From positions 3,616,001 through 3,680,000 of the forward strand of contig OZ242318.1 in the NCBI GenBank assembly GCA_965208105.1: 64,000 nucleotides of DNA, given 5' to 3'. This document shows, one piece after another, positions 9,970 to 33,446 of the stretch; position 1 is the first letter of the stretch; every line of letters begins with the position of its first letter. The position numbers and the translations under genes are program-made. The DNA is from Candidatus Latescibacterota bacterium (GTDB lineage: Bacteria; Latescibacterota; UBA2968; UBA8231). The notes under the pieces are model-generated. The model made no database searches and was not told where the DNA came from. It saw only the letters and a list, made by a program, of their open reading frames with translations.

Positions 9970-10003
9970 CGCCTGCCCCCAATCCCGGGTGGATTCACCG
10001 GCA

Positions 10004-10089
10004 GCCGCATCCCACCTAGCGGTGTGGGCCTCGGACCCCCACCCGCCCCCGTACAACCCGCCGCATCCCTTCTCGCGGTGTGGGCCTCG
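10004..10089. repeat. Two 30-bp REP-like direct repeats
   Basis: gccgcatcccacctagcggtgtgggcctcg (10004-10033) and gccgcatcccttctcgcggtgtgggcctcg (10060-10089), 27/30 identical. Confidence 0.75.
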
Positions 10090-10134
10090 CTACTCCTTAC
10101 TCCTGGTGCGGTTCGTCCGGGAGCCGCCGGGGGT

Positions 10135-19140: not shown

Positions 19141-20235
19141 TCACTTTCTTCCTTCGAGAAGGTCCAGGTACTGTGCCGCGGTTTTTTCCCAGGAGTACTC
19201 GCGCCGGACGTAGCCGCGGGCTTCGGCGCGCTTGGCTTCCCTTTCGCGCTCGGGCAGGGCGTAGTAGCGGTGGATCTCGCCGACAAAGCTCGGATAATCG
19301 TTGGGTTCTATCAAGTAGCCGCCTTCGCGCACGCTCTCGACCAGGGCGTCCACCGCGAAAGCCACCACGGGGGTGCCGGTGTACATGCTCTCCAACTGGG
19401 TCATGCCGAAGCCTTCCGCGTCGTTGGGAGTCGGAACGTTGGGAAAGATGAAGAGGTCGGCGCTCTGGCGCAGCATGGCGATGGTTTCGTCGGAGGGGGA
19501 CTCGAGGAGAACGACGCGGTCCTGCAGCTCCGGCTTCCCGCTCAGGGCGCGGATGCGTCCCAGGTCGGGGCCGGCGCCGCCGATGACGAGGCGGATGTCG
19601 GGATCGAGCAGGGGCATGCCCTTCTCCAGGAATGCGGCCACTCCCTTGCGCGGGACCAGGCGGCCGAAGTTGAGCAGGATGCGGTCCCGGCCGAAGCGCA
19701 GCCCGTGGGTCCGCTCGAATCGCTCCCGTATGAGGCCGCACTGCTCGTCGGCAAGGACCAGCGCCTCCACCCCCAGGTAGACGATGGTGATTTTCTCCGC
19801 GGAGATGCCTGCCCGCACCGAGATCTCGCGGGAGTGGCGGCTGATGAGGACGACGTGGTCGCAGGCCTGGGCGCCGCGGCGCATGAGGCCGCGGGCGAGC
19901 CGGTTGCCGTAGGCCATTTCCAGGCCGTAGATCGTGACCACGAAGCGGGCGCGGGCAATGGGCCGCAGGAGAGGTGCCAGCGCCCCGACCACCCCGTCGC
20001 CGAAGTAGACCGCGTCCACCCGCCTCAGCAGCAGGTCGAAGAAAGCCCGGACGAAGGCCCAGGGCAGAAACCAGAGCAGGTGAATCTTCCACTGGCGGCC
20101 CAGCGCCACCAGCCGCACCGGGCGCCGGGCGCTCAGCCGGGTGTAGAGGTTGTGGCAGTGGACCTGGATGCCCCCGACGGAAGGGGGGTAGCGGCGGGTG
20201 ATGAACAGGATACGGGTGCCGGGGCTGGATGACAT
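19141..20235 (-). CDS. Glycosyltransferase family 4
   Basis: YPPSVGG, GRLVPRKG, EGFGMTQLES. Confidence 0.88.
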   Translation of the reverse strand: MSSSPGTRILFITRRYPPSVGGIQVHCHNLYTRLSARRPVRLVALGRQWKIHLLWFLPWAFVRAFFDLLLRRVDAVYFGDGVVGALAPLLRPIARARFVVTIYGLEMAYGNRLARGLMRRGAQACDHVVLISRHSREISVRAGISAEKITIVYLGVEALVLADEQCGLIRERFERTHGLRFGRDRILLNFGRLVPRKGVAAFLEKGMPLLDPDIRLVIGGAGPDLGRIRALSGKPELQDRVVLLESPSDETIAMLRQSADLFIFPNVPTPNDAEGFGMTQLESMYTGTPVVAFAVDALVESVREGGYLIEPNDYPSFVGEIHRYYALPEREREAKRAEARGYVRREYSWEKTAAQYLDLLEGRK

Positions 20236-20316
20236 GAAAGGGAATTTCTGAAATTGGCCCCTCGGACTCAAGGGCAACACCCGAAAGGAATTGCCGCGGA
20301 AGCCGTGCCGCCGGGG

Positions 20317-21186
20317 CTAGTGCCCCCCGTGGGACTCCATCCCGTGCTCGTGATGGACGGCGCTGGATTCCACGTAGTAGAGCACGTAGGCCAGGGCGAT
20401 TCCCAAAAGGAGGGATATGATGAGCTTGCCGCGGTCGTGGCCGTGGAATTGGATCTCGGGCAGCAGGTCGCTCAGGGCGATGCAGAGGAAGGCTCCGGCG
20501 GCAAAGGACAGCACGTAGCCGACTATCGCTCCATGTTCCGGACCCAGCAGCTCCACCCCCGTGAAACTAGCCAGGGCTACCAGGGGACAGAGCATGGCGA
20601 AGCCGACGTTGGCCGCGGTGCGGGACCGGGGGCTGTGTCCGGCGGACTTCATCATGCCGATGATGGAGTAGGCGTCGAGGGGCTTGTGCAGCAGTATGGC
20701 GAGGAATACCCCCAGCCCGACCAGCACCACTTCGTCGGAATGGGGCGGGCCAATCTGCATGCTGGTACCCAGGGCGATCCCTTCGGTCACGGTATGCACC
20801 CCGAGGCCGAGGACGACGCCTACCAGGCTGCGCGAATGGACGACGGAACCGCCGTGGTCGCGCCGGTCGTAGAGATCCTTGGCCTCGGCGCTGAAGTCGT
20901 GCTGGTGGTACTGAAAGATGCGCAGCAGAAAAATCATGAGGACCATGCCGAACACCATCCATCCAACCACTTTCTCTATGATTGCAGGTCCGGTAAGGCG
21001 ATCGATGCTGTGGGGCAGAAGGTGAAACATGGCGATGCCGAGGATGAAACCGGCCACGAGGCTCATGACCACCTGGGTGCGGGTGTGGGTCATGTTGCCC
21101 ATGGCCGCCAGTTTGCCGCCGCCGATGGAGACGGCGAAGATGGCGGCGCAATAGGCGAGCAAGACCAGAAAAGTATGTATGTCCAT
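20317..21186 (-). CDS. ZIP-family divalent metal transporter
   Basis: HLLPH, HQHD loop, HTVTEGIALG (TM4), HKPLD (TM5), SDLLPE; His-rich C-terminus. Confidence 0.9.
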   Translation of the reverse strand: MDIHTFLVLLAYCAAIFAVSIGGGKLAAMGNMTHTRTQVVMSLVAGFILGIAMFHLLPHSIDRLTGPAIIEKVVGWMVFGMVLMIFLLRIFQYHQHDFSAEAKDLYDRRDHGGSVVHSRSLVGVVLGLGVHTVTEGIALGTSMQIGPPHSDEVVLVGLGVFLAILLHKPLDAYSIIGMMKSAGHSPRSRTAANVGFAMLCPLVALASFTGVELLGPEHGAIVGYVLSFAAGAFLCIALSDLLPEIQFHGHDRGKLIISLLLGIALAYVLYYVESSAVHHEHGMESHGGH

Positions 21187-21292
21187 GATGGCCGTGATCA
21201 AAAACTACGTGGGATAGCGGTCGTCCCCCGGATGGGAGGGAAGGAAGAGCGCGCCAGGAGCGAAGAAGCTGGTCTCGGCAAGGGATTTCCGC

Positions 21293-21781
21293 TCAGAAGA
21301 ACAGCATCAACAGCACGATGCTGCTCAGCCCGCCGAGCATGAACCCCGCGGTGCTGACGACGCCCGAGGCCATGGAGAAGTCGGCGATGCGGAAGGTCTG
21401 GGGCCCGATGGTGAACATCACCTGGGAGCGGTCGATCTCCCCCTCGACGAATCCCTTCAGGCCCTCCTCGGCGCTGTGAGCCTCCTTGACAGAGACCAGG
21501 GCTACGAGAATCATGGTCATGGCCGAGGCCAGGGTCCCGATCGCGAACATGAGCAGCGTAGCCAGGGCGAACCAGTGGTAGGCGGCGTCCTCGTTCCCCG
21601 ACGAGGAGCTCATGAACCCGATGATCAACGCCGCACCGCCCGCATTGCCGAGCAGCAGCAACCGGGCGGACTCGGTGATCAGCCTGAACATGGTGCCGCG
21701 GCGCATGGCGACGACTTTGTAGAGCTCTCGCAGCCACTCTTCACCGGTTTCTTCGCCGGAAAATTCATCCACCTTTTTCAA
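21293..21781 (-). CDS. Hypothetical membrane protein (3 predicted TM helices)
   Basis: Three hydrophobic stretches; 3 bp downstream of the SBP gene stop. Confidence 0.7.
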   Translation of the reverse strand: MKKVDEFSGEETGEEWLRELYKVVAMRRGTMFRLITESARLLLLGNAGGAALIIGFMSSSSGNEDAAYHWFALATLLMFAIGTLASAMTMILVALVSVKEAHSAEEGLKGFVEGEIDRSQVMFTIGPQTFRIADFSMASGVVSTAGFMLGGLSSIVLLMLFF

Positions 21782-21784
21782 TGG

Positions 21785-22900
21785 CTAATTTCCTCCGAGA
21801 TCGGTCAGCCTGATGTAGCTCGAACCCGTATTGGTGCCGGGCTCGAATTCGAGAGTCCAATCGTCGATCGCCACCGGCCCGGACGCCAGGGCCTGATCCA
21901 TGAAATTCTGGCGCGTCAGCTGGTCGCCCATGCGCTCCAGCACGGCTATGACGAAGCGGCCCAGAATGTAACCTTCGAGGGACACCTCGTTGATGGTGTA
22001 ATCCGCCGTCTCCGTCCCCGCCGCCGCGGACTCGAGAGCTCGTTGGAAACTCCGCACAACCGGCCTGCTGGTGTCGTCGGCGTCGGGCATCACCTCGGTG
22101 ACCAGGATCCGGTCGTTGGGCTCTGTGACCTCCTTCTTGAGCTCGTAGGACAGGACGAAGGACAGGTTGGCGATTATGTACTGGTGGCCAAGGGAATGCG
22201 CCAGGTTGATGATCTCCGCGTTGGCGGCGTAGGCTCCGACGATGAGGATGGCGTCCAGGTCGGCCTTGGCCAGGGCGAAGAGGCTCGCCTGGACGGCGTG
22301 GGTGTTGCGCGAGAAGGCGGTCTTCGCCAGAATGGGGACGCCGTGTCCGTCGAGAACCGTCTTGTAGTTTCTCAGGACGGAACGGCCGAAGGCGTCGTCC
22401 TGGTAGATGATCCCGAAGCGGTTCTTGCCGCGCTCCTGCAGGATGTGCTCCACCAGCAACCGGGTCTCGTCGAAATAGCCCGCCCTCAGGTTGATGACGT
22501 TGGGGAAGCGCTTGGTGTTGCGCAGGAAATCGGCGCCGGTGAAGGGTCCGACGAAAGGAATCCCCGCCGTCCTCAGCACGGGGGCGATGCGCTTGGCGGT
22601 CGGCGTCCCCACCCCGCCGATGACGGCCAGCACCTCGTTCTCGGCGGCGAAGCGTTCGGCGTTGGCCGCGGCCTGCTCGGGCTCGTAGGCGTCGTCGAGG
22701 GATACCAGCTCCAGCGGCCTGCCGTTCACCCCGCCGCGCGCGTTGCACTCGCGGAAGGCCGCCTCGATCCCCGCCCGGTAGTTGAACCCCAGGCGCTCGT
22801 TCGGCCCGGAGAAACAGGCACTCTGGCCGAACACCACGGCCTCCGCGGCGGCCGTGGAGACCGCGGCCGAGAGCACGAGGAGGAAGGAGGCCAGCAGCAT
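21785..22900 (-). CDS. Periplasmic substrate-binding protein, LivJ/type-1 PBP family (orphan)
   Basis: Signal peptide MLLASFLLVLSAAVSTAAA; FGQSA, GGVNGR, LDDAYEP, GVGTPT, YQDDAFG; ATG 1 nt after the hflK-like stop. Confidence 0.85.
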   Translation of the reverse strand: MLLASFLLVLSAAVSTAAAEAVVFGQSACFSGPNERLGFNYRAGIEAAFRECNARGGVNGRPLELVSLDDAYEPEQAAANAERFAAENEVLAVIGGVGTPTAKRIAPVLRTAGIPFVGPFTGADFLRNTKRFPNVINLRAGYFDETRLLVEHILQERGKNRFGIIYQDDAFGRSVLRNYKTVLDGHGVPILAKTAFSRNTHAVQASLFALAKADLDAILIVGAYAANAEIINLAHSLGHQYIIANLSFVLSYELKKEVTEPNDRILVTEVMPDADDTSRPVVRSFQRALESAAAGTETADYTINEVSLEGYILGRFVIAVLERMGDQLTRQNFMDQALASGPVAIDDWTLEFEPGTNTGSSYIRLTDLGGN

Positions 22901-22901
22901 G

Positions 22902-24245
22902 CTAATTACCCTTGCCACCGGCTTTCGCTTTCTTTTCGGCGCCAACTGTTTTCTCCTTCTTCGCGCCGCCGCCTTCCTTCTTTTTCTTCTCCCCGGTTGC
23001 CAGGTTCTCGATCATCGGCTTTTCGTCGGCCTCCTGGCCCACGGGCTTGCCGCTCACGTGGCGGTGGGAGAAGATGGACGGGGTGTCGAAGATGAGCGAC
23101 CGCGGGTTGGCGATGCTCATGTGGTCCCGTTCGGCGCGGGTCTGATGGAACTGGCCGTCGAGCAGGAGCTTGTCGGCATGGATGCTTTCGATGGCGTGCA
23201 CGTTCTGCATGGTGGCCGTCGAGAGCAGGGGCCTGTCTTCGATTTTTTCACTGGTGGGAGGTGCTTCCAGCGCCATGTGCGCCGGGGTGAACCCGCCCGC
23301 TCCGTCGATCATGTTGATGTCGATGGCCGACTGGTTGCCCGGATTGACCGCCGCCAGGCTGGCCTCCGCAAAGATCTTGCGCATCCGGTCCCAGTAGCGC
23401 GTGATTCCCACGTGGGCGGGCTGTTTGCGGTATTCGGCCAAAAGCGCCGAGAAGGCTCCGGCGGTGCTCTTCGCCTGTACCACGCGCTCCCTGGCCTTGG
23501 CCTTGGCGTTGATCACCATGGCCTTGGCCTGTCCACGGCTGTGGGCGATGAGCTGCTCCCTTTTGCGGTTGGCGTCGCTCACCGCCTTGACGCGGTCGGC
23601 GAAGGCGTCGCTCACGTCCCGGAAGGCGGCGATGGTTTCCTCGATGGGGCGCACGTCGAGGATGTCGAGGGAGACCAGCTCAATCCCGATGTCGCGGGAG
23701 GCGAGGCGCTCGGTGATCCGCTCGAACAGTTTGCTTTGAATGATGTTTCGATTCGAGGTGAGGATCAGGTCGATGAAGTTCTGCCCCAGGATATTGACCA
23801 GCTCCTCCCTGGAGATCATGGTCACCATGGCGAGGGGGTCGGAGGTGACGAACAGGTAGTTCCTCAGGTTGTCGACCTTGTACTGGAGGGCCACGTCCAC
23901 TTCGAGCAGGTTCACGTCTCCCGAAAGGATGGTGAAGTTGACGGAATCGCCCTCCTTGCTGGAAACCTGGTGGCGGATGATGCGCTTGACCTTGTGGACG
24001 TAGGTCTTCTCGATGACGGGAATGCAGTAGTGGATGCCGGGCCCGATGTTGGCGTCCACCACCCGGCCGAAGCGGGTGCGAACGCCCTGCTCCTCTTTCT
24101 TGACGACGTAGAACCCGCTGGCCAAAAACCCGGCGACGACGGCTGCGGTGACCGATTGCAGGATGCGCCGGTGGTGCTTGCCGAGGAAGTCGAATGCGGC
24201 GTAGATGACCCGCGTGCTGGGCGGCAATGACTGTCGTTCGCTCAT
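22902..24245 (-). CDS. HflK-like SPFH protein with long C-terminal extension
   Basis: TM helix then SGFYVV..GVRTRFG..PGIHY, LSGDVNLLEVDVALQYKV, AAFRDV, coiled coil, F-ALLAEY. Confidence 0.85.
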   Translation of the reverse strand: MSERQSLPPSTRVIYAAFDFLGKHHRRILQSVTAAVVAGFLASGFYVVKKEEQGVRTRFGRVVDANIGPGIHYCIPVIEKTYVHKVKRIIRHQVSSKEGDSVNFTILSGDVNLLEVDVALQYKVDNLRNYLFVTSDPLAMVTMISREELVNILGQNFIDLILTSNRNIIQSKLFERITERLASRDIGIELVSLDILDVRPIEETIAAFRDVSDAFADRVKAVSDANRKREQLIAHSRGQAKAMVINAKAKARERVVQAKSTAGAFSALLAEYRKQPAHVGITRYWDRMRKIFAEASLAAVNPGNQSAIDINMIDGAGGFTPAHMALEAPPTSEKIEDRPLLSTATMQNVHAIESIHADKLLLDGQFHQTRAERDHMSIANPRSLIFDTPSIFSHRHVSGKPVGQEADEKPMIENLATGEKKKKEGGGAKKEKTVGAEKKAKAGGKGN

Positions 24246-24266
24246 TTCAGGCGGACTCCCCAATTG

Positions 24267-25154
24267 TCAGGGCCTTGCCTTGGTGTCGAGATACTTGAAA
24301 AGCTCGTTGTCGGCCGGCAGCATGAGGGTGGTGTTGCGATCGATTATGAGGTCGTAGCTGTCGAGGGCGCGGACGAACTTGTAGAACTCCGGATCCTTGC
24401 GGTAGGCCTTGCCCAGCAGGGCCATGGCCTCGGCCTCGGCCTCGCCCAGAATGGCGGTGGCCTCGGCGTGGGCGTCGGCGATCAGCTTCTCGTGCTCGTT
24501 GATGGCCAGGGCCTCGATGCGCAGGGCCATCTCCTCGCCCTCGCTGCGATAGCGGGCGGCGATGCGCGCGCGCTCGGCGATCATGCGGCGGATGACGCTG
24601 GGCCGGTTCTCCACCGGCAGGGTGTACTCGACGATCCCCGCCTCCATTACCTCGATCCCGTAGCTCTCCCTGGCGACGGGGGCGATTCTGGCGAGAATCG
24701 CCCGGGAGGCCTCGTTGAGGTCCTCGTGCTCCAGCCCCAGTCCGATGAAGGCGTCGAGGGACTTGTTGCTGATGATGATTCCGCTGCTGGAAAGGTAGAG
24801 GTCCTGCAGCCGCTCCACCGCGCTCTGGCCGGTGCGGATCGCCTCGACGAAGAGAATGGGGTCCACGGTGCGCCAGAGCAGGTAGCCGTCGACGAGGATG
24901 CTCTTCTGGTCTTCGGTGATCAGCTCGTGGGGGATTCCGGTCAGGGTGTGAATGCGGCGGTCGACCTTGTAGATCTTCGAAATGGGGCGCGGCCACTTCA
25001 GGTGAAACCCGGGCTGCCGCACGGGGGGAGAAATCTTGCCGAAGTGAGTCAACACCCCCTGCTGGGTCTCGTTGACGATGTAAAAACTGTCGTAGGCGAT
25101 GGCGGCGGCGATGGCGATGATGGCCGCGGTGATCGTCTTTCTCTTCAGCTTCAT
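24267..25154 (-). CDS. HflC-like SPFH protein
   Basis: SFYIVNETQQGVLTHFG, PGFHLKWP, ITEDQK, RMIAER, RSEG, DPEFYKFVRALDSY. Confidence 0.9.
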   Translation of the reverse strand: MKLKRKTITAAIIAIAAAIAYDSFYIVNETQQGVLTHFGKISPPVRQPGFHLKWPRPISKIYKVDRRIHTLTGIPHELITEDQKSILVDGYLLWRTVDPILFVEAIRTGQSAVERLQDLYLSSSGIIISNKSLDAFIGLGLEHEDLNEASRAILARIAPVARESYGIEVMEAGIVEYTLPVENRPSVIRRMIAERARIAARYRSEGEEMALRIEALAINEHEKLIADAHAEATAILGEAEAEAMALLGKAYRKDPEFYKFVRALDSYDLIIDRNTTLMLPADNELFKYLDTKARP

Positions 25155-27445
25155 TGCCCTTTACTCCCGTGGTGTCGGTCCCCGCCGGCCGCCCGGGCAT
25201 TGCTCTTCTTCCACAGGGCGACCTTCTCGAGGCTCTTCTTGTTGGGCACGATGATCTTGGGGTTGCCGGCCAGGGCGGTCTCCAGCTTCTCCCGCCACAG
25301 CATGTTGCGCAGGACCCCGGGGGCGCTGCGCACGGCGTCGGACACGAGGGAGATGGCCTCGGCCTCGGCCGCCGAGGTCTTCACCTTCCGGTAGGCCTCG
25401 CCCTCCGCCTGCTCCACCTCCCACTCGGCGTTGCCGTGCGCCTGGGGGATCAGGGCTACCAGGAAGCGCTGGGCGTTGACGATGATCCGCTCGCGGTCCT
25501 CCTGGGCGCTCGATACGTCCCGGAAGGCGCTGACCGTCTCGGCCACCGGCTTGATTTCCAGCAGGTTCACCTTGACCAGGTCCACGGTCCTGAGCACCGG
25601 GTTCTCCAGGTGGATGTCGGAGGCGAAGGACTCGGTGATGTGCTCTTCCAGGGTTACGCGATGGACGTTGAGCAGTTGTTCCAGATCCCGGGCGGACACG
25701 AAGGAACGCAGGTGGGCCTTGACCACGTCCGTTATGATCTTCTCCGGGCTGGTGGTGCGGTAATGATACTCGTAGGGGTCCTCGACCCGGTACTGCACGT
25801 TGACGGTGAGGGTGAGGAGGTTGAGGTCTCCGGACACGTAGTCGTGGGGGGCGTCGCTCATTATGGACTTCACCTCCCGCACCGGCCACTTGTCCACCTG
25901 GACGAAGGGCCGGGGGGCGAGGTAGTGCAGGCCGGGCTGCAGGTCGCGCCAGTGGACCTTGCCGAAGAGCAGGCCATAGCCCACCGATCCGGGAGGCACG
26001 GTGGTGAAGCCGCTACCCAGAAACAGGACCAGGGCCAGGGCCCAGAGGATCAGCCCCAAGGGCGCGGCGGGAGAGACGACGCCCCAGGCCGAACGGCTGC
26101 GGGTCAGACGGCGCCAGGTCCGGCGCCAGGGCCGGGACAGAGGCCGGAGATTGAGCAACAGGTCCTCCCAGCCGCTGCGCATGGCCCCGGCGCGGAAGCG
26201 CCAGACGATAAGGGCGATGAGGACAAAGGCGCCTCCCCATTGCATGAACTGCAGGGTGGGCGAGTCCGAGGCGACGAGATTCACCGAGATGCTCAGGCCG
26301 GCGGCGAGGAGCAGAATGTCGATCAGGATGCCGAGGGCGGCGGTGACCGCGATGACCGCGGTGACGTAGATGGAAGCGAAGCGGGCGCCGAACTGGCTGA
26401 CGATGATGGCGATGGTTCCCGTGTTGGTGGCCGGACCGGTCATGAGAAAGATCAGCGCCGCGCCCGGGCTGACCCCCTTGGCCACCAGGGCGGCGGCGAT
26501 GGGGGTGCTGGCGGATGCGCAGATGTAGAGCGGAATGCCGATGAGCACCATGACGGGATAGGCCAGCCAGCGGGCGTACTCGTGGGCCATCAGGTCGCCG
26601 GGGATGACCAGGAAGAGCACTCCTCCCAGGGCCACTCCCACCAGCAGGGCGAAGAGGATGTCGTCGGCAATCTCGACGAAACCGTAGCGGAAGATGTGCT
26701 TGACGACCCGCCTGAAGTCCAGCTCCGGGTGGTCGGCCGGGGCGGCGGAGGAATCGTCCGCTGCGCCCTGCGCGGCAAGGGACTCGCGGTAGAAGTCCGG
26801 CTTCACCCAGGATGTGGTCTTCCAGCGGCCGGCCGCCAATGCGACTGCCTTCAACCAGTGAACGGTGAGCCTCTTCAGCATCGAGGGGCTGACGTAGCAG
26901 TCGTCACTGTCGGCGATGAGAGCCTCATGGCCGTGGTCGTGATTGTGGTCGTGATCATGGTCGTGTTCGTCATGCTCATGGCCGTGATCGTCATGGCCGG
27001 CCTCTGATTCGTCCCCTTTTCTGATGAGGCCGATGCAGAAGATGCCGGCGACGACCGCGGTGATGAAGCTGATCACGGGCCGCACGATGGCGACGACCCA
27101 TCCGAAGAAGGCGTTGGTGACCAGGATGGAGTCGGCCCCTGTTTCAGGGGCGGTTATGAGAAAGGACATGCAGGAGGAACGGGAGGCGCCCTTGCGGCGC
27201 ATCTCGGCAACCACCGGAACCACGGAGCAGCTGCACAGGGGCACCGGTACGCCGATGGCCGAGCTCATGCTGACCGACTTCAGGCTGTCTTCGCGGAGCC
27301 AGCGCAGAATGGCCTGGCGGGATATGAATACATGGATCAGGCCGGAGAGGAACAGCCCCAGAAGCAGCATGGGGGCCAGCAGCAGGAAGGACGACCAGAG
27401 GAAATCGAAGAACCTGGTGAATATGTCAAGGAAGCTCAGGGCCAA
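25151..27445 (-). CDS. ArsP/DUF318 (SO_0444-type) metal permease fused to a C-terminal HflK-like SPFH domain
   Basis: PLCSCSVVP, FLITAPETG, YICASASTP, FLMTGPATN permease motifs with His-rich loop; C-terminal ~300 aa SGFTTVPPG..PGLHY..SGDLNLL..VQYRV..SAFRDV; TTG start with GGAGG RBS. Confidence 0.88.
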   Translation of the reverse strand: MALSFLDIFTRFFDFLWSSFLLLAPMLLLGLFLSGLIHVFISRQAILRWLREDSLKSVSMSSAIGVPVPLCSCSVVPVVAEMRRKGASRSSCMSFLITAPETGADSILVTNAFFGWVVAIVRPVISFITAVVAGIFCIGLIRKGDESEAGHDDHGHEHDEHDHDHDHNHDHGHEALIADSDDCYVSPSMLKRLTVHWLKAVALAAGRWKTTSWVKPDFYRESLAAQGAADDSSAAPADHPELDFRRVVKHIFRYGFVEIADDILFALLVGVALGGVLFLVIPGDLMAHEYARWLAYPVMVLIGIPLYICASASTPIAAALVAKGVSPGAALIFLMTGPATNTGTIAIIVSQFGARFASIYVTAVIAVTAALGILIDILLLAAGLSISVNLVASDSPTLQFMQWGGAFVLIALIVWRFRAGAMRSGWEDLLLNLRPLSRPWRRTWRRLTRSRSAWGVVSPAAPLGLILWALALVLFLGSGFTTVPPGSVGYGLLFGKVHWRDLQPGLHYLAPRPFVQVDKWPVREVKSIMSDAPHDYVSGDLNLLTLTVNVQYRVEDPYEYHYRTTSPEKIITDVVKAHLRSFVSARDLEQLLNVHRVTLEEHITESFASDIHLENPVLRTVDLVKVNLLEIKPVAETVSAFRDVSSAQEDRERIIVNAQRFLVALIPQAHGNAEWEVEQAEGEAYRKVKTSAAEAEAISLVSDAVRSAPGVLRNMLWREKLETALAGNPKIIVPNKKSLEKVALWKKSNARAAGGDRHHGSKGQ

Positions 27446-27611
27446 TCAGCGACCTCCAGTTAAAAAAGCCAATCGAAGCTGCAACTGACTGTTGGGCAAC
27501 CAAATGAATTCCAATGTTACAGAAGTATTAGAGACCAGTTAATATAGTTAACTATTGTTGTTTATACCGTCTTTTTTTCGTGAAGAAATTACAAGTCGAT
27601 GGCGCCGGAGC
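27446..27611 (-). promoter_or_regulatory. AT-rich promoter/operator region of the permease-SPFH operon
   Basis: Conspicuously AT-rich; perfect palindrome ATAGTTAACTAT at 27544-27555. Confidence 0.55.
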
Positions 27612-30600
27612 CTATGGCGCCGCGTCCCGGTCCACCTCCACCGCAAACCACTTGTAGAGCGCCGGCAGCACCAGCAAGGTCAGCACGGTGGAGCTGACCA
27701 GGCCGCCGACCACCACCGTCGCCAGAGGCCGTTGCACCTCGCTGCCGGTGCCGGTGGAGAACAGCAGGGGGATCAGCCCCAGGGCGGTAGTCAGGGCGGT
27801 CATGAGCACCGGCCTCACCCGCAGGCACGCCCCCCGGACCGAGACTTCGTCCAAGTCCACCCCCTCGCGGACGAGCTGGTTGAAGTAGGTCACCATCACC
27901 ATGCTGTTCCCCAGGGCGATGCCGAACAGGGCGATGAAACCCACTGAGGACGGCACCGAGAGGTTCTGCCCGGTCAGCCACAGGGCAACCACACCGCCCA
28001 CCAGCGCCAGGGGAATGTTGAGCAGGATCAGCACCGCGTTCTTGAGCGAATTGAAGCTGGAGAACAGCAGCAGGAAGAGGGCGAACAGGGTGATGGGAAC
28101 GACGATGGCGAGGCGCCTGTTGGCCTCCTGCTGCAGGCGGAACTGGCCGCCCCAGGTCACCAGGTAGCCCGGCGGCAGCGCCACCTGTCCGGCGATGGCC
28201 TCCCGGGCCTCGCGGACGAAGGATCCCATGTCGCGGCCGCTGACGTTGCACTGGACGGTGATGAAGCGCTGGCTCTTCTCGCGGGTGATCTGGCGGGGGC
28301 CCACCACCTCCTCGATGCGGGCTAGTTGAGCCAGGGGGATCTGGAGGCCCATGGGGGACTGGACCAGGATCTGGGCGATGGCCTCGGGGCTGCTGCGGAA
28401 CCGGGGGGCGAAGCGCACCAGGATATCGAAGCGCCGGGTCCCTTCGAACACCTGACCCACCAGCTCGCCGCCGACCGCCGCCTGCACCACCTCCTGGACG
28501 TCGGCCACGTTGATGCCGTAGCGGGCGATGGCCTGGCGGTCGACCCCGATGAGCAGCTGGGGGGTGCCGCTGATCTGGTCCACCTGGACGTCGGCCGCTC
28601 CGGCTACCCCGCCGACCACCTGGGCGATTTCGTCGGCCTTGAGCTTGAGCACGTCGAGGTCGTCCCCGAAGAGCTTGACGGCCAGCTCGGCCCGCACTCC
28701 TTCCAAAAGCTCGTCCACGGTCATGGCGATGGGCTGGGTGAAGTTGGTCAGCACCCCGGGTATGTCCCCGAGCTCGGCGCGGACGAACTCGCGCAGCTCT
28801 TCCTGGCTGCCGGCGTTGCGCCACCGGTCCCTGGGCTCGAGCAGGAGAAACATCTCGGCGCTGTTGATGGGGTCGGTGTGGGCGCCCACTTCGCCGCGGC
28901 CGATGCGCGATACCGCGCCGGAAATTTCGGGGATCCGCAGCAGTCGCCGTTCCACCAGCATGGTGATCCGGGTGCTCTCCTCCAGGGATATGGAAGGGGC
29001 CATGGTCAGGCGCAGGACCATGGTGCCCTCCTGCAGGGCGGGCGTGAACTCCGACCCCAGGCGCGGGAAGATCACCATCCCGATAAGAAGGAGGATCCCC
29101 GCCGATCCCAGGGCCCAGAAGCGGTGGGCCACGAAGCGGGCGACCAGGGGCCGGTATGCGGCCACCAGCCGCCGCGTCATCCAGCTTTCCCCGGGGGGTG
29201 TGCCGTCATTGCCTGGCTTTGGCGGGCGCAGCACCAGGTTCGACAGTACCGGGGCCAGAAAGAGGGCGAAAACCAGGGAGCCCAGCATGGCCATGGCCAC
29301 GGTGTAGGCCAGGGGGCGGAAGGTCTTGCCCTCGACTCCCTGGAGAGTGAACAGGGGCAGGAACACGAGAATGATGATGAGGATGGCGAATACGATTGGA
29401 CGTCCCACCTCCACGCAGGCGCGGGCAACGGCCCTGCCGCGCTCCTCCTCCGCCTGCGGCTGGCGCAGCGCGCGGTCCACGTTCTCCACCACGACGATGG
29501 TGCCGTCCACCATCATGCCGATGGCGATGGCCAGGCCGCCGAGGGACATGAGGTTGGCCGAGAGGCCGAAGTAGTTCATCCCCAGGGTGGCGAACAACAC
29601 GGAAAAGGGAATGGACAGGGCGACCACAAGGCTGGGGCGGACGCTGCCCATGAAGAGGATGAGCACCAGGGTGACCAGGACGATGCCCTGCACCAGGGCA
29701 TCGGTGACGGTCTTGACGCAGGCGGCCACCAGGGTCTTCTGCTCGTAGTATGGCACCAGCCGCACCCCCTCGGGCAGGATGCTGTTGATCTCCTCCATCC
29801 TGGCCTCGACCCGCTCGATGACGGTGGAGGAGTTGGTGCCGAAGAGCTTTATCACCATGCCCGCCACCACCTCCTCCACTCCGTTGCGGGTCTGCACCCC
29901 GCGGCGGATGGCTCCGCCGATGCCCACCCGGGCAACCTGGTCGAGGAAGACGGGGGTCCCGTCGACGGCCTTGATCACGATGTTCTCGATGTCCTCCACG
30001 GTGGAGGCCAGGCCCACGGAGCGCACCACGTATTCCTCGGCGTCCTTCTCGATGAACTGGGCGCCGACGTTGAGATTGTTGGCCTCGATCTGGGCGATGA
30101 CGTCGCGCAGGGTCACCCCGTAGCGCAGCAGGGCATGGGGGTCCACCACCACCTGGAACTGCTTCTCGTGGCCGCCGATGCCGAGGATTTCAGTGACTCC
30201 GGGAACGGTCTGCAGATGGAACTTGACCAGCCAGTCCTGGATGGTGCGCAGCTCTTCGAGGGAGTAGTTGCCGGAGCTGTCCTCCAGGTAGTAGAAGAGG
30301 ACCAGGCCCATGCCCGTGGAAATAGGTCCCAGCGCCGGCTCGCCGAAGCCTTCGGGTATCTGTTCCCAGGCCTCGTGGAGGCGTTCGCTCACCAGTTGGC
30401 GGGCGAAGTAGATGTCCACCTCGTCGGCGAAGTAGATGTTGACCACCGAGAGGCCGAAGTTGGAGACGGAGCGGATGTTCTCGATGCCCGGCAGGCCGTT
30501 CATCACCGTCTCGATGGGGTAGGTGACGTAGGTTTCGATCTCTTCGGGAGCCAGACCTTCGGTGACGGTGAATACCTGGACCAGGTTGGGCGAGACGTCG

Positions 30601-30719
30601 GGGAAGGCGTCCACCGGAAGCTGGCGGTAGCTGAAATAGCCGCTGGCCACCACCACCGCTCCCAGGACCAGCATGAGCATGCGGTTGCGCAGGGCCAGGT
30701 GAACGACGCGCTCGATCAT
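27612..30719 (-). CDS. czcA: Heavy-metal efflux RND transporter (CzcA/CusA family)
   Basis: 1035 aa; LPVDAFPD, AIGMMVDGTIVVVEN, GVEGKTFRPLA, RVRPVLMTA, GSEVQRPLA. Confidence 0.93.
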   Translation of the reverse strand: MIERVVHLALRNRMLMLVLGAVVVASGYFSYRQLPVDAFPDVSPNLVQVFTVTEGLAPEEIETYVTYPIETVMNGLPGIENIRSVSNFGLSVVNIYFADEVDIYFARQLVSERLHEAWEQIPEGFGEPALGPISTGMGLVLFYYLEDSSGNYSLEELRTIQDWLVKFHLQTVPGVTEILGIGGHEKQFQVVVDPHALLRYGVTLRDVIAQIEANNLNVGAQFIEKDAEEYVVRSVGLASTVEDIENIVIKAVDGTPVFLDQVARVGIGGAIRRGVQTRNGVEEVVAGMVIKLFGTNSSTVIERVEARMEEINSILPEGVRLVPYYEQKTLVAACVKTVTDALVQGIVLVTLVLILFMGSVRPSLVVALSIPFSVLFATLGMNYFGLSANLMSLGGLAIAIGMMVDGTIVVVENVDRALRQPQAEEERGRAVARACVEVGRPIVFAILIIILVFLPLFTLQGVEGKTFRPLAYTVAMAMLGSLVFALFLAPVLSNLVLRPPKPGNDGTPPGESWMTRRLVAAYRPLVARFVAHRFWALGSAGILLLIGMVIFPRLGSEFTPALQEGTMVLRLTMAPSISLEESTRITMLVERRLLRIPEISGAVSRIGRGEVGAHTDPINSAEMFLLLEPRDRWRNAGSQEELREFVRAELGDIPGVLTNFTQPIAMTVDELLEGVRAELAVKLFGDDLDVLKLKADEIAQVVGGVAGAADVQVDQISGTPQLLIGVDRQAIARYGINVADVQEVVQAAVGGELVGQVFEGTRRFDILVRFAPRFRSSPEAIAQILVQSPMGLQIPLAQLARIEEVVGPRQITREKSQRFITVQCNVSGRDMGSFVREAREAIAGQVALPPGYLVTWGGQFRLQQEANRRLAIVVPITLFALFLLLFSSFNSLKNAVLILLNIPLALVGGVVALWLTGQNLSVPSSVGFIALFGIALGNSMVMVTYFNQLVREGVDLDEVSVRGACLRVRPVLMTALTTALGLIPLLFSTGTGSEVQRPLATVVVGGLVSSTVLTLLVLPALYKWFAVEVDRDAAP

Positions 30720-30740: not shown

Positions 30741-31970
30741 TCAGTGCGAGTGGCCGTCTCCGAAAGCCCCTTTGGCCAACTGGGATTTGAGGATGAAGGC
30801 GCCGCGGGCGACGTAGGACTGCCCCGGCTCCAGACCGGCGACAATCTCGGAGTGGGTGGAGTTGCTGCGGCCGACGCGGACGGGGTGGGGAACGAATCCT
30901 TCGCCGGTTTCGACGAAGACCACGGCATGATCATCGATGGTCTGAACGGCCGATCCCGGCACCAGGACGGGCACCTGGACCGCATCCCCCGAGATGGTCG
31001 CGGTGACGAAGGAACCTGGACGCCAGCGGCCCTCCGGGTTGCGCAGCTCGATGCGCACCGGGGCGGTGCGGGTGGCCTCGTCCACGATGGGGCTGATGTA
31101 GTCCACCGAAGCCGTGGTCGACGGGCCACCCTGCCCGGCCTCGATGTGCACGGTCTGGCCGACGCGCAGGAAGGGCAGGTCCTTCTGGTAGGCGGTCAAC
31201 ATCACCCACACCGAGCGCAGGTCGGCCACCACGAAGGCCTCTGAGTCTTCCTGCAGGACCTCGCCCCGGACGATGTGCTTGCTGATGACGGTGCCTGAAA
31301 GGGGAGCCGTCATCGGGTAGCGGGTGAAGCGCTCGCCGTCTTCGAAGGACAGCCCGGCCAGGTAGTCGCCGGAAAATCCCAGGGACTGCAGCTTCTGCTC
31401 GGCCGCCTGCAGCTCGATGAGAGCCTCGGCCAGTCCGTTCCTGGCCTCCTGGAACTGCCGCTCCGAGGAGATGGACTGGTCCCAAAGCGATTTCTCCCGC
31501 TCGAAGGTGGCTCGCGCAAGCTCCAGCCGCTCCCGGGAAACAAGGTAGGCCGATTTCAGCTCCGACAGCTCGGGGCTGTCGAGCACCGCCAGGACCTGGC
31601 CTCGCTGCACCGGGTCGCCGATATTGGCGTGGATATCCCGGGCAACCCCCCCAATCCGGGGAACGATGTGGGCCACCAGATCGGGATTGACCTGCACCTC
31701 GCCGGGGGTATGAATCTGAACCGCCAGGCGGCCGGCGGCGGCCTCTGCGACCTCGATGCCGAACTCGGTCCGTTCCGCGGCGCTCAGGCGAATTCCCTCC
31801 TCGGGGTCCTTCCCTCCTTCTCCGGCGTGACCTTCCTCCTCGTGGTGGCCCCCCTCCTCCGCCCAGGCCGGACCTTCCAGGAAAGAAACGGCAGCACGCT
31901 CTCCCGGGGCCGAAAGAGCCGTCTGCAATGCGATGAATCCCAGGACCGCGATGTGGACTCGCATTCTCAT
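30741..31970 (-). CDS. czcB: RND periplasmic adaptor (CzcB-like)
   Basis: GDPVQRGQVLAVLDSPEL, VADLRSVWV, TRTAPVR, WRPGSF; His-containing N-terminal segment and HSH end. Confidence 0.9.
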   Translation of the reverse strand: MRMRVHIAVLGFIALQTALSAPGERAAVSFLEGPAWAEEGGHHEEEGHAGEGGKDPEEGIRLSAAERTEFGIEVAEAAAGRLAVQIHTPGEVQVNPDLVAHIVPRIGGVARDIHANIGDPVQRGQVLAVLDSPELSELKSAYLVSRERLELARATFEREKSLWDQSISSERQFQEARNGLAEALIELQAAEQKLQSLGFSGDYLAGLSFEDGERFTRYPMTAPLSGTVISKHIVRGEVLQEDSEAFVVADLRSVWVMLTAYQKDLPFLRVGQTVHIEAGQGGPSTTASVDYISPIVDEATRTAPVRIELRNPEGRWRPGSFVTATISGDAVQVPVLVPGSAVQTIDDHAVVFVETGEGFVPHPVRVGRSNSTHSEIVAGLEPGQSYVARGAFILKSQLAKGAFGDGHSH

Positions 31971-33250
31971 TCTCCTTGGGGATGGGTGGGCGGGGGAGCG
32001 CCGACGGCGCGCTCCAGGGCGGCGTCGGCGGCGCCGTAGTCGAACAGGGCGTGGGCGTATTCCACTCGGGTCACTAACCGGAGGCGGCGGGCTTCGAGCA
32101 GCTCCAGGTAGGTGGACTTGCCCTCGTCGTAGCTGCGGCTGGCTACCTCGAACGCCCGTTCCGCCCCGGGCAGAATCCGGTCCTCGAACAGGGCCACCTG
32201 CTCGGCGGCGGTTTCGAGGTCGAGGAAAGCTCCTTTCGTCTCCAGAAGGATCCGATTGCGCAACTCGTCGCGCTCGGCCCTTGCCCGGACGGCTTCCGCT
32301 TGGGCAAGGGCCCGTTCGCCGCGCTGGTGCAGGAATGCCCACAGAGGCACCTCCAGGCCAATGCGAAAAAGCCAGGAGTCCTCCCCGTGGCCTCCATGCC
32401 GTTGTTGGAGAGCCAGACCCGCGTTCAGGTCCGGCCAATAGGCCGCGGTGGCCGCCGCCTGCCGGCTCCGCAGGGCTTTCAACTGCAGCTCGGCCCCGGC
32501 CAGGTCGGGCCGCTGTCTCAGGGCTGCCTCGTTCAGTTGGTCGAGATCGGCCTCGACCGGCTGAAAGGCCAGGCTGTCGGCCAGTGAGAAGGGGGTCTGC
32601 AGGGGCCGTGCCAGGAGGGCATTGAGTTCGGCCCTGGCCACCGAAAGCTCGTTTTGCGCCGCTCTCTTGCGGTTACTTGCCCGTCCAACCTCGACGCTTG
32701 CCCGCAGCACGTCAAGCTCCGGCACGTCGCCCGCTTCGAAACGGATGTGGGCCTGGCGCAGAATATTCTGGGCCAGGTGGAGGTCTTGACGGGCATGCTG
32801 GAGCAGGTCCTCGTTCAGCGCGATGCGGTCATAGGCCGTCCTGGCCCGGAGGACGAGGTCGAGCCGGGCCATCTCGAAGACCGCCAGGCGGGCCGCTTCG
32901 GCGTGCTGGCGGCCGGCCTGGAGACGGTACCACCACTTCAGGGGAAATTCGAACCGCTGGCTGACGCCGATTGTGTGCTCGCCATGGTGTCCCGAGCTGC
33001 CGAATCTGGGCAGCTCTTCGAACTCGAACTCCGGGTCGGGCGGGACGGCGGCCTGACGCCCCAGGGCGCGGGCGCCTTCCCAGGCGTTGCGGGCGGCCTC
33101 CACCTCTGGATTGCGCTCCAATGCCAGGCGAACGGCGTCGTTCCTCGACAGGGGCTCGGCGTGCGCTTCTTCACCAGAAGGCTGGCCGTGGGCGAGGGCG
33201 GGCGCGAGCAGGAAGAGGAGGAGGATGGAAGGTGGTTTGGCTGACAACAT
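31967..33250 (-). CDS. czcC: TolC-family outer membrane efflux protein (CzcC-like)
   Basis: Signal peptide; ALERNP, RFEAGD, LRQRPDL, YDEGKSTYLELL. Confidence 0.88.
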   Translation of the reverse strand: MLSAKPPSILLLFLLAPALAHGQPSGEEAHAEPLSRNDAVRLALERNPEVEAARNAWEGARALGRQAAVPPDPEFEFEELPRFGSSGHHGEHTIGVSQRFEFPLKWWYRLQAGRQHAEAARLAVFEMARLDLVLRARTAYDRIALNEDLLQHARQDLHLAQNILRQAHIRFEAGDVPELDVLRASVEVGRASNRKRAAQNELSVARAELNALLARPLQTPFSLADSLAFQPVEADLDQLNEAALRQRPDLAGAELQLKALRSRQAAATAAYWPDLNAGLALQQRHGGHGEDSWLFRIGLEVPLWAFLHQRGERALAQAEAVRARAERDELRNRILLETKGAFLDLETAAEQVALFEDRILPGAERAFEVASRSYDEGKSTYLELLEARRLRLVTRVEYAHALFDYGAADAALERAVGAPPPTHPQGE

Positions 33251-33356
33251 GGCTAATGCCTGGGGAGTGCAGGATACCGCGGGCCATGGGGAGGCTGAAA
33301 AAAGCGTTTCTCGAGGCGTGGCTGAGCATTTCTGCCAGCAATTGAAAAAAAGTAAC

Positions 33357-33370
33357 CATTGCGCGCAATG
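33357..33370. promoter_or_regulatory. Perfect 14-bp palindrome upstream of czcC (candidate operator)
   Basis: CATTGCGCGCAATG next to an A-tract, ~107 bp upstream of the czcC ATG. Confidence 0.4.
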
Positions 33371-33446
33371 CGCAAGCCCCGGACGAAGGGTGTCCGGTGG
33401 TCTCCGGGGCGGGCAAAACTCTGCGGCGGAGCCAAAAGGCGGGTGA

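Follow-up and report, generated by a model that had tools for sequence, protein, structure and literature searches.

An SO_0444-type permease fused to an HflK-type SPFH domain in a bacterial locus with two further SPFH genes

Background

Structures of the cages formed by SPFH proteins (HflK/C, prohibitin, stomatin, flotillin and erlin) have recently been solved, and the effect of these cages on the proteins they enclose is debated. For most bacterial SPFH proteins we know of no client. HflK is a modulator of FtsH, and in many proteobacteria it is linked to hflX or hfq. The system closest to the SPFH genes described here is the E. coli HflK/HflC-FtsH complex (7vhp, 7wi3, 9cz2), in which adjacent genes encode a K-type and a C-type protein, each with an SPFH domain, a coiled coil, a single anchor helix and periplasmic domains.

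SPFH oligomers are also found associated with transporters. In eukaryotic stomatin cups, with which channels and carriers associate (9zd2, aquaporin-1 bound to stomatin), the oligomer delimits a circular patch of membrane and holds its client non-covalently from the cytosolic side (Nat Commun 2026, PMC13724742). In SPFH-NfeD operons, such as QmcA-YbbJ (8z5g), an SPFH gene is accompanied by the gene for a small membrane protein.

The permease family concerned is named for SO_0444 of Shewanella oneidensis. Growth of this organism under ZnSO4 or CuCl2 stress needs SO_0444, and a role in Cu/Zn efflux was proposed for the protein (PMC3219624). A CSC motif is given as the signature of the family in a preprint (10.1101/2022.07.06.499078). 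Members of the Shewanella type carry no fusion, have lengths of about 350-400 aa and fall within a clade of 51 rows, all of them unfused.

Results and discussion

Fusion gene

We identified a gene (F) that joins an SO_0444-type permease to an HflK-type SPFH domain in a single chain. It lies in a 64-kb window (the whole stretch of DNA analyzed, 64,000 nucleotides, from a Candidatus Latescibacterota genome) and is followed by genes for an HflC-type protein (C') and an unfused HflK-type protein (K'; Table 1). Compared with the E. coli pair, F adds an N-terminal permease of about 420 residues to the K-type subunit, and the cassette holds three SPFH genes rather than two. Compared with SO_0444, the permease bears an additional linker, anchor and SPFH module.

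Table 1. Features of the fusion locus and its neighbors in the window
Feature	Position	Strand	Evidence or remarks
ZIP-family metal transporter (context)	20317..21201	(-)	Pfam Zip E 1.6e-18
Small membrane protein without family	21293..21781	(-)	No Pfam match; sequence
Periplasmic binding protein, Peripla_BP_6, LivJ-like, signal peptide	21785..22945	(-)	Pfam E 4.4e-49; PDB 4kv7 E 1.2e-44
K', unfused HflK-type SPFH, long Lys-rich C-terminal extension	22902..24263	(-)	Likely ATG start 24245
C', HflC-type SPFH, 295 aa	24267..25154	(-)	TIGR01932 154 bits, cut-off 134.4
F, SO_0444-type permease and HflK-type SPFH, 764 aa, TTG start	25151..27445	(-)	Pfam/NCBIfam, homologs, AF2
F: SPFH domain (about 480-633), coiled-coil helices 635-707 and 709-725, disordered tail	25154..26014	(-)	Foldseek, family profile
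F: HflK-type transmembrane anchor, residues 462-477	26015..26062	(-)	Hydropathy 2.4, helix 462-477
F: Arg-rich amphipathic linker, residues 419-461, 9 K+R, holds the junction	26063..26191	(-)	Predicted cytoplasmic
F: permease domain, residues 1-418, about nine membrane helices or hairpins	26192..27445	(-)	Motifs, domain model
F: His-rich stretch GHDDHGHEHDEHDHDHDHNHDHGHE, residues 150-174, 11 His in 25	26924..26998	(-)	Within the central loop
CusA/CzcA-type heavy-metal RND pump (context, upstream)	27612..30719	(-)	TIGR00914 1110.7 bits
CusB/HlyD-type membrane fusion protein (context)	30741..32438	(-)	HlyD_D23 E 9.1e-47
Outer-membrane efflux factor (context)	31967..33610	(-)	OEP E 3.4e-43

An earlier note on this DNA had described F as one uninterrupted 764-codon frame, and the frame does run through without a stop. 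The domain scan suggested there recovers both halves, ArsP_1 at residues 10-376 (E 9e-45) and then Band_7 (PF01145) at residues 482-659 (E 2.6e-15; 57.4 bits against a gathering score of 23.6). The protein scores 324.5 bits against NCBIfam NF033936 (SO_0444 Cu/Zn efflux; cut-off 300) over residues 17-415, and 139 bits against the hflK model TIGR01933, below its cut-off of 159.4. The AF2 model of F has a pLDDT of 84.5. Both permease half-motifs named in the earlier note are present, PLCSCSV at residues 69-75 (27221-27241) and YICASAS at residues 307-313 (26507-26527).

A search for full-length homologs, also proposed in that note, returned many proteins with both domains in one chain. PF01145 and PF03773 occur together in 116 of 120 full-length matches, among the matches listed. 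Among the best 150 representatives of clusters at 50% identity, 115 share the arrangement of a permease half followed by an SPFH half, and so F is not an artefact; 104 of the 115 are 650-860 aa long. Fused loci (36 near and 15 distant) come from independent assemblies, complete chromosomes among them. Across the junction, a contig from run X1 spans 25865-26405 with zero differences, though X1 may be the source sample.

That the long frame is a mis-assembly or a frameshift merging two genes is practically inconceivable. No point in its support was found. The short-read contigs across the region are fragmentary. Against this reading stand the cluster representatives, the independent fused loci, a linker charge conserved over 105 sequences, and a junction with no reported indel that one contig bridges exactly. 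We rejected the artefact reading on the listed full-length homologs, the cluster representatives and the independent loci. F is a genuine fusion gene, widespread in bacteria. No description of a permease-SPFH fusion family was found in the literature searched.

Permease domain

F is the only SO_0444-family (NF033936) gene of its genome, and it combines a score above the curated cut-off with the Cys-Ser-Cys motif and the second-half cysteine of the family. The three residues, C71, C73 and C309, are invariant in all 105 aligned fused proteins, which suggests soft-metal binding. We infer that the N-terminal half of F is a metal export permease of the SO_0444 type with a thiolate site (CSC ... C), its metal specificity being likewise a reading of the sequence.

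The fold is probably of the elevator type. The model of the permease domain (pLDDT 85.3, pTM 0.82) has as its nearest folds by VIA-align ArsB (10tp; Z 12.7), Pho90 (8r33; 11.6) and INDY/VcINDY (10.9), followed by TRAP (SiaQM) and CNT transporters. Every one of the 13 best structural matches, with Z from 12.7 to 8.0 over 228-290 aligned residues, is an elevator-type transporter, a group with two re-entrant hairpins that have the substrate site at their tips, and the next match has a Z of 5.3; however, identity with the F permease is 7-14%, and for helical bundles a Z below about 13 may mean no more than a similar arrangement. The permease half had no match among PDB sequences at E ≤0.01.

The loop at residues 141-243, between the two half-motifs, is predicted to be cytoplasmic and disordered (pLDDT <50 at 152-179). 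It contains the His-rich stretch exactly where the earlier note had placed it. The number of histidines in this loop varies, with at least 8 in 26 of the 105 aligned fused proteins and 2 or fewer in 50, and the His-rich loop is not a trait of the fused family as a whole. In-frame length variants of the stretch were seen in metagenome contigs.

SPFH domain and topology

The last 300 or so residues of F had been described as a transmembrane helix, an SPFH domain and a coiled coil, and the Band_7 match, the anchor helix and the helices of the model bear this out. Foldseek searches of the PDB with this half place 7vhq_E first (E 6e-14), followed by 9cz2 and 7wi3, all HflK/C. The search gave 55 matches at E ≤0.001; among the matches listed there are only SPFH and vault chains, and the domain also aligns to stomatin chains.

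The SPFH domain is K-type and not C-type, in agreement with its earlier description as HflK-like. A profile of the fused family scores E. coli HflK at 209.6 bits (E 7.8e-61) and HflC at 77.9 bits, and E. coli HflK is the nearest protein to this half by fold as well. A tree of 99 SPFH rows splits into C-type and K-type proteins with a support of 100. The 27 rows of F fall together on the same side of one branch (SH-aLRT 85), and canonical HflK (95) and canonical HflC (98) form separate groups. Motifs parallel to those of an HflK-like neighbor, as noted earlier (SGDLNLL/SGDVNLL, VQYRV/LQYKV, SAFRDV/AAFRDV), are real; the gene that carries them is the second downstream, with the HflC-like gene intervening, and not the first. 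The AF2 model of F has long coiled-coil helices, which in HflK/C form the wall of the cage.

Like hflK, F lies beside a gene for an HflC-type partner, as C' exceeds the curated hflC cut-off. However, neither F nor K' (144.5 bits) reaches the TIGR01933 cut-off, and the linkage to FtsH or hflX seen for HflK is absent at the genomic level, both FtsH genes being distant.

The topology of F was predicted from the distribution of K+R in 105 fused proteins. Segments 41-54, 84-90, 244-257, 352-355 and the linker (mean 6.0 across the family) are rich in these residues, whereas the N-terminus, segments 281-291, 322-328 and 383-396 and the post-anchor segment (0.2) are poor. This pattern is compatible with an inverted repeat of helix, hairpin, helix, helix in the permease, and it would give a cytoplasmic linker, modeled as a helix at 421-449, and a periplasmic SPFH domain, as the earlier note had expected. 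In the type II topology of HflK a short cytoplasmic N-tail precedes one anchor helix and a periplasmic SPFH domain; F has an anchor with an Arg-rich segment before it, and a whole permease in place of the N-tail. C' begins with MKLKRK and a transmembrane helix, a signal anchor of the classic N-in kind. In contrast to the stomatin cup, the module of F is predicted to be periplasmic and its client is covalent.

Conservation and genomic context

The triad is conserved wherever the sequenced locus has room for it. C' is downstream of F in 32/32 near and 14/14 distant loci (46/46) and K' in 32/32 near and 13/13 distant fused loci (45/45), and the named genomes, from over ten phyla, all have the order F, C', K'. 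Record titles of fused loci include Pseudomonadota, Acidobacteriota, Myxococcota, Planctomycetota, Nitrospinota, Binatia, Zixiibacteriota, Tectimicrobiota and Eiseniibacteriota, and Bradyrhizobium erythrophlei GAS478 is among the genomes with a fused locus. The start of C' overlaps the stop codon of F by ATGA; to judge from this overlap the two genes are translationally coupled. The subtrees of F, K' and C' have groupings of loci in common (L062+L071, L064+L068, L067+L070+L133 and L073+L078), by which the three genes are co-inherited.

The genome contains five Band_7 genes, and canonical hflK (278.4 bits) and hflC (203 bits) are 3.2 Mb from the cassette, which is independent of that locus. Two full FtsH genes are at 0.35 and 1.39 Mb, with the cassette at 3.64 Mb, and the window has no FtsH or hflX gene at the cassette or in its vicinity. 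The operon of three SPFH genes, additional to the canonical pair, had been overlooked in the earlier note.

Metal-transport neighbors of F are not constant across loci. Of the 36 near fused loci, 9 have a ZIP gene and 7 have a CusA/CzcA-type RND gene in their flanks; none of the 15 distant fused loci has the RND gene. A ZIP gene also lies immediately upstream of F in a locus from Planctomycetota (L070). In Bradyrhizobium and Burkholderiales an FmdA/AmdA-family amidase gene lies upstream of F.

Two additional genes follow K' in the subclade of the window, giving a five-gene cassette with 55-92% identity across phyla that is also found in runs labeled sponge metagenome. The genes for the Peripla_BP_6 protein and the small membrane protein are each present in 31/31 near loci and 0/13 distant fused loci, and the binding protein is thus outside the core system. 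The small membrane protein, whose Atlas neighbors are all annotated 'hypothetical protein', recalls the SPFH-NfeD operons in its conservation beside SPFH genes of the near clade. However, it has no match in Pfam, NfeD included, and is missing from the distant fused loci.

The permease gene can be retained without the SPFH part. The earlier note read the fusion as a Rosetta-stone link between metal transport and SPFH scaffolds, under which unfused SO_0444 permeases might work with separate SPFH proteins elsewhere. In the near clade (FastTree), 24 unfused permeases are interleaved with 12 fused ones, and the unfused close relatives examined are deletion derivatives without SPFH genes, not split versions. 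A genome of the same genus has a single 4605-bp deletion running from about codon 444 of F through C', K' and the binding protein to half of the small gene, and it keeps an open permease of 452 aa.

Possible function

The constant association of F with two other scaffold genes looks like that of a scaffold ring with a built-in client transporter. We consider it somewhat probable that F, C' and K' form an HflK/C-like periplasmic ring in which tethered metal exporters are clustered and controlled. F would be a bifunctional protein of the inner membrane, in which the cytoplasmic Arg-rich helix and the one anchor tie the permease to the periplasmic HflK-type SPFH/coiled-coil module. F, C' and K' would be co-translated and form an alternating ring or cage at the inner membrane, on its periplasmic side, with C' at the HflC positions and the HflK positions, as the earlier note had proposed for the fused copy, taken by F together with K'. 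In this way a number of exporter copies would be covalently fixed around the edge of a single membrane microdomain, and K' may dilute the bulky cargo-bearing subunit F. The arrangement would probably serve to gather the metal exporter in one place and to govern where it works and under which lipid or protease regime, beside other metal transporters (CzcCBA, ZIP). We infer co-assembly, the stoichiometry of the ring, the placing of F at HflK positions and this physiological purpose from the likeness to HflK/C and the conservation of the triad.

A complex prediction for C' with residues 455-750 of F gave an ipSAE of 0.55 (best of three controls 0.00) and the verdict 'weak support'. Of 80 solved complexes 58 attained this mark, as did 2 of 110 mismatched pairs; scores of 0.60 or less belong to only 7 of the 80 and to both of these mismatched pairs. 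The runs agreed in at least 92% of contacts with a partner pLDDT of at least 75. Since HflK/C has been solved, this pass may reflect memory.

The three proteins could instead be a second HflK/C-type regulator of FtsH, with regulated turnover as its point, in which the fusion presents or shields the permease and exporter levels track the metal load. HflK and HflC are indeed their nearest relatives, and two full FtsH genes are available in the genome. However, the canonical hflKC pair is already present, neither FtsH nor hflX accompanies the cassette in the window, and F and K' remain under the curated hflK cut-off, so that we regard this role as unlikely.

It is distinctly unlikely, in our estimate, that the triad is a closed or gated periplasmic SPFH cage into which Cu/Zn is discharged, a confined chamber acting as a metal-containment nanocompartment. 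K' would in that case set the number of exporters per cage, and the binding and small membrane proteins of the sponge subclade would be parts of the chamber.

Uptake rather than export has very little chance of being the function. The permease and the binding protein would make up a TRAP-like secondary importer, with the SPFH ring keeping the binding protein or its substrate near the permease. The model does resemble elevator transporters that include TRAP SiaQM and IseQM (Z 9.4-10.3), the binding protein has a signal peptide and no adjacent ABC genes in the 31 near loci, and the amidase-family neighbor in two distant loci is suggestive in that Peripla_BP_6 includes amide binders such as AmiC. 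However, a TRAP or TTT system has a cognate binding protein of the DctP, TAXI or Bug family, and the neighbor here is LivJ-like and missing from all 13 distant fused loci. Additionally, F passes the SO_0444 efflux model, its cysteine triad suggests soft-metal binding, and mutants in the founding member are metal-sensitive.

The SPFH domain of F might also regulate or stabilize only its own permease, leaving C' and K' to form a separate complex. Persistence of the permease without the SPFH module in several lineages and the weak C'/F prediction would fit such an arrangement. We give it equally little credence, as F retains the full set of coiled-coil helices that builds the HflK/C cage, occurs with C' and K' in every locus with room and in common branching patterns, and appears to be translationally coupled to C'.

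Conclusions

The fusion of a client to its scaffold, in F together with C' and K', is apparently undescribed until now in the literature searched. The analysis also brings to light the five-gene cassette, found in genomes of many phyla and in sponge-metagenome runs, and flags the SO_0444 permeases, which are poorly studied and without a solved structure, as probable elevator-type metal transporters with a thiolate site. If F, C' and K' do form an HflK/C-like ring carrying exporters, evolution has here joined a client to its scaffold, and the arrangement has been kept across many phyla with two fixed partner subunits. The identity of the client, its stoichiometry and its position relative to the ring would be directly readable by cryo-EM in the F system, and the value of the tether would be measurable by comparing the natural fused and deleted forms.

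A genuine two-domain gene

The fusion of an SO_0444-type permease and an HflK-type SPFH domain in one chain is genuine and not an artefact; F, the gene that encodes it, is a real two-domain gene. The single open frame reported in the earlier note was confirmed, and the positions it gave for the permease motifs and the His-rich stretch match the translation exactly. A domain scan found both halves as Pfam families, ArsP_1 and Band_7. In NCBIfam, the permease half passes the SO_0444 Cu/Zn-efflux equivalog and the SPFH half matches the hflK model below its cut-off.

A word-indexed search with F gave 2178 matches (E ≤0.001) among 8000 scored candidates. Both Pfam families are present in 116 of the 120 matches listed (62–92% identity, 728–892 aa); the other four are annotated with PF03773 alone, yet 97–99% of the query is covered. 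An exhaustive phmmer search of 1.84 billion cluster representatives returned 8880 matches at E ≤0.001, and the best 150 comprise 115 with both halves in the same order, 32 with the permease alone and three with the SPFH part alone. Most of the two-half matches (104 of 115) are 650–860 aa long with 25–63% identity to F. One 796-aa homolog (P0018) has a ZIP family match (PF02535) besides ArsP_1 and Band_7.

The earlier note had suggested read mapping across the junction. The read check consisted of Logan contigs only, no listed piece of which covers the entire stretch. The junction is free of indels in contigs of four public sequencing runs, and one contig spans 25865–26405 with zero differences, although its run, X1, is possibly the source sample. 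In the run contigs, indels are confined to the His-rich loop, and their total length is divisible by three. In-frame length variants of this loop occur in metagenome contigs of run X8, and two contigs (runs X5 and X18) skip 117–124 bases of the region. The RNA run X18 is not evidence of transcription, and bins lacking RNA cover are meaningless.

Scans of window positions 20000–28000 gave one promoter-like site against 1.2 expected and six terminator-like sites against 4.7 expected, both at chance level; the same scan marked a terminator-like hairpin, with a run of T, in the gap from the CusA-type gene to the F start. Upstream of the efflux operon lies an open frame of 838 aa without a Pfam match; in DNA this GC-rich, it may be a shadow frame.

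Coordinates of features in the window, in F and in related loci
Feature	Position	Remark
F	window 25151-27445 (-)	single open frame, 764 codons
C'	window 24267-25154	directly downstream of F; HflC-type, 154 bits, cut-off 134.4
K'	window 22902-24263	second gene downstream of F; HflK-like, unfused
Junction of F	window ~26008-26188	
His-rich stretch of F	window 26924-26998	11 His in 25 residues
Loop variants	window 26933-26970	X8 contigs, net +15 bases; region skipped in X5, X18
Terminator-like hairpin	window 27467-27490 (-)	scan overall at chance level
838-aa frame	window 33447-35963 (-)	
ArsP_1	F residues 10-376	E 9e-45
SO_0444 equivalog	F residues 17-415	324.5 bits, cut-off 300
Band_7	F residues 482-659	E 2.6e-15
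hflK TIGR01933	F residues 487-738	139 bits, below cut-off 159.4
Ninth helix	F residues 396-418	
Amphipathic helix	F residues 421-449	29 residues
Anchor helix	F residues 462-477	
Charged segment	F residues 41-54	mean K+R 2.8
Charged segment	F residues 84-90	mean K+R 2.4
Charged segment	F residues 244-257	mean K+R 2.6
Charged segment	F residues 352-355	mean K+R 1.6
Linker	F residues 419-461	mean K+R 6.0
Part missing from L033	window 21509-26113	exactly 4605 bp; compared with L033 9338-9341
Extra genes before triad	L064 2643-4723; L068 4761-6888	HflC-like and amidase genes
Interrupted copy of F	G040:C4:535158-536732	77% identity over residues 6-532
Divergent unfused permeases	about 2100-3450 (-); 8001-9215 (+)	L039, L040, L041, L043
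Long frames, 610-690 aa		G002, G004, G005, G007, G011-G015, G018, G019, G023, G024

A conserved operon of three SPFH genes

F is followed by an HflC-type gene, C', whose ATG overlaps the TGA of F, and then by an unfused HflK-type gene, K'. The HflK-like protein with which the earlier note compared the fusion is encoded by the second gene downstream and not by the immediate neighbor. The TTG start of K' (24263) is likely too early; an ATG at 24245 is preceded by GGGGAG, and homologs align from approximately residue 7.

We surveyed genome contigs and found 36 loci with close fused relatives of F (near loci) and 15 with distant ones. Wherever there is room, C' lies downstream of F in both near (32/32) and distant (14/14) loci, and the same is true of K' (32/32 and 13/13). 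By record title, the distant loci belong to Thermoanaerobaculia, Holophagales, Burkholderiales, Myxococcota, Tectimicrobiota, Planctomycetota, Zixiibacteriota and Eiseniibacteriota, and one distant fused record without a MAG label is Bradyrhizobium erythrophlei strain GAS478, in which F, C' and K' occupy positions 6941-9202, 9317-10324 and 10321-11340 of locus L068. An extra HflC-like gene and an FmdA/AmdA-family amidase gene precede the triad in Burkholderiales (L064) and B. erythrophlei (L068), which thus have four SPFH genes in a row.

The window's genome is a single 4.85 Mb contig with five Band_7 genes. Three form the cassette, and the other two are a canonical pair, hflK at 278 bits and hflC at 203 bits, approximately 3.2 Mb away; F is the only SO_0444-type gene. 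The F-C'-K' operon is conserved, co-inherited and independent of canonical hflKC.

In HflK/C, as described in PMC12005517, one transmembrane helix lies at the N-terminus and the SPFH domains are periplasmic; 12 heterodimers form a cage enclosing four FtsH hexamers. A function of F, C' and K' in FtsH-linked turnover is unlikely; the two full FtsH genes of the window's genome, at 0.35 and 1.39 Mb, are far from the cassette. In the reading we prefer, the three proteins would assemble an HflK/C-like periplasmic ring.

Lineage of the SPFH domains

The SPFH tree contained 99 sequences: 27 each of F, C' and K', two upstream extras and eight canonical pairs. It took 13 of the 36 near loci and was a quick search (LG+G4) with long branches on several F rows. 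C-type and K-type sequences split with support of 100, all 27 F rows fall on one side of one branch (SH-aLRT 85), and canonical HflK (95) and HflC (98) are each separate. Identical groupings recur within F, K' and C'. Together, the position of the F rows and these recurring groupings are consistent with a fusion that arose once and with joint inheritance of the three genes. The SPFH half of F is K-type. With a profile built from the fused family, E. coli HflK reaches 209.6 bits and HflC 77.9 bits; the top Foldseek matches of the F model are chains of HflK/C cryo-EM structures.

A complex prediction for C' (36-row alignment) with F residues 455–750 returned the verdict 'weak support', with an ipSAE of 0.55 while the best of three controls reached 0.00. 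Of 80 solved complexes, 58 pass the ipSAE mark, as do 2 of 110 mismatched pairs, and scores at or below 0.60 include just 7 of the 80 solved complexes together with both passing mismatches. Contact agreement between runs was at least 92% and partner pLDDT at least 75. Because HflK/C is a solved structure, the pass may reflect mere likeness to it. That the SPFH part of F serves as a private regulatory domain is improbable. In the ring that we favor, F and K' would share the K positions.

Structure and topology

The full-length AF2 model of F (pLDDT 84.5, pTM 0.60) shows a permease whose halves resemble each other, both having broken helices at the Cys motifs, and a disordered His/acid-rich loop. 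A ninth helix, an amphipathic helix and an anchor helix lead to the SPFH domain, which is followed by helices of 73 and 17 residues. We averaged K+R over 105 aligned fused proteins; outside the charged segments and linker (see table), the remaining loops and the region after the anchor have values of 0 to 0.7. A single predicted topology obeys the positive-inside rule at every point, with the unit helix, re-entrant hairpin, helix, helix present as an inverted repeat. It would put the His loop and linker in the cytoplasm and both residues 383–396 and the SPFH domain in the periplasm, the latter as the earlier note had anticipated; this agrees with HflK/C (PMC12005517). Two simple topologies, in which each repeat has four full spans, were rejected because the Arg-rich linker or the conserved RRxG loop would face the periplasm.

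Foldseek with the full-length model listed SPFH and vault chains alone and none for the permease half, so this half was modelled separately (pLDDT 85.3, pTM 0.82). Compared with 48,161 PDB representatives, its best 13 matches (Z 12.7 to 8.0; the next 5.3) are all elevator-type hairpin transporters: ArsB, Pho90, INDY/VcINDY/LaINDY, DiT1, NaS1, TRAP transporters IseQM and SiaQM, YdaH and CNT. As identities are 7–14% and no PDB sequence matches at E ≤0.01, this is a resemblance and not membership.

Distribution of the near clade

Close relatives of F (55–92% identity) come, by record title, from Gamma- and Alphaproteobacteria, Nitrospinota, Binatia, Bryobacterales, Gemmatimonadetes, Latescibacteria, Opitutae, 'Deltaproteobacteria' and Candidatus Poriferihabitaceae. 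They group tightly as one clade in the trees, with a stem length of approximately one change per site. Parts of the stretch are present in 20 run rows from 11 studies, many labelled sponge metagenome; two of these, X5 and X8, from different studies, contain 11 and 30 pieces, respectively, at ≥99% likeness. We infer that the cassette was transferred between phyla sharing this habitat.

In the near clade alone, the cassette has two further members: a LivJ-like binding protein that is secreted, and a small membrane protein that belongs to no known family. Each occurs in 31/31 near loci with room vs 0/13 distant loci. In the ESM Atlas, the small protein matches 'hypothetical protein' clusters only. 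Of the 36 near loci, 9 have a ZIP transporter and 7 a CusA-type pump. Binding-protein-dependent uptake by the permease has little probability, and we regard it as a probable exporter.

Loss of the SPFH part

A same-genus genome, G001, corresponds by coordinates to locus L033, titled Candidatus Latescibacterota. Colinearity between L033 and the window extends over window positions 34000–26114, breaks off, and resumes over 21508–19000. The missing sequence runs from the SPFH part of F through C', K' and the binding protein into the small membrane gene, whose 5' half is absent. The L033 permease is an open frame of 452 aa that ends within the linker and is followed by a ZIP gene; the deletion point corresponds to about residue 444 of F. 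In L033 the start of the linker and the 3' half of the small gene are still present, so an insertion in the window's lineage was rejected in favor of a deletion in L033.

Among 40 relatives, full fusions occur in 4 of the 12 genomes of one genus (g19), while eight genomes have permease-only matches in open frames of 401–512 aa, three with one internal stop. A further copy, in G040, is interrupted by one TAG and may be a broken fused gene. Open frames of 610–690 aa in many same-family genomes match permease repeats in both halves (31–48% identity) without an SPFH match, and may represent another long ArsP_1-type architecture. Latescibacterota chromosomes (four loci) have two divergent unfused permease copies approximately 4.5 kb apart.

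A FastTree phylogeny was built from 114 permease domains. Fused and unfused rows (12 and 24) are intermixed in its near clade, which has support of 100. Fused rows make up most of the successive outgroups of this clade (L062 with L071, followed by five more fused rows); one unfused row, L063, branches between these outgroups and the near clade. A separate all-unfused clade of 51 rows contains the Shewanella-type SO_0444 genes. Thus, loss of the tether occurred repeatedly, and the permease gene can persist alone.

Proposed role

The fused proteins are named simply 'SO_0444 family Cu/Zn efflux transporter' in databases, and one JGI name reads 'YraQ .../regulator of protease activity HflC'. A full-text literature search, without supplements and subscription journals, yielded no description of a permease-SPFH fusion or of the triad. 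Word searches of two SPFH surveys returned neither permease nor transporter (PMC2636767) and neither permease nor fusion (PMC13086221). Mutant fitness and complementation led to the proposal that SO_0444 is a Cu/Zn efflux protein (PMC3219624), and the CSC motif is described in a preprint (10.1101/2022.07.06.499078). The substrate of the exporter is probably Cu/Zn-like, and the ring of F, C' and K' would tether several metal exporters to one microdomain.
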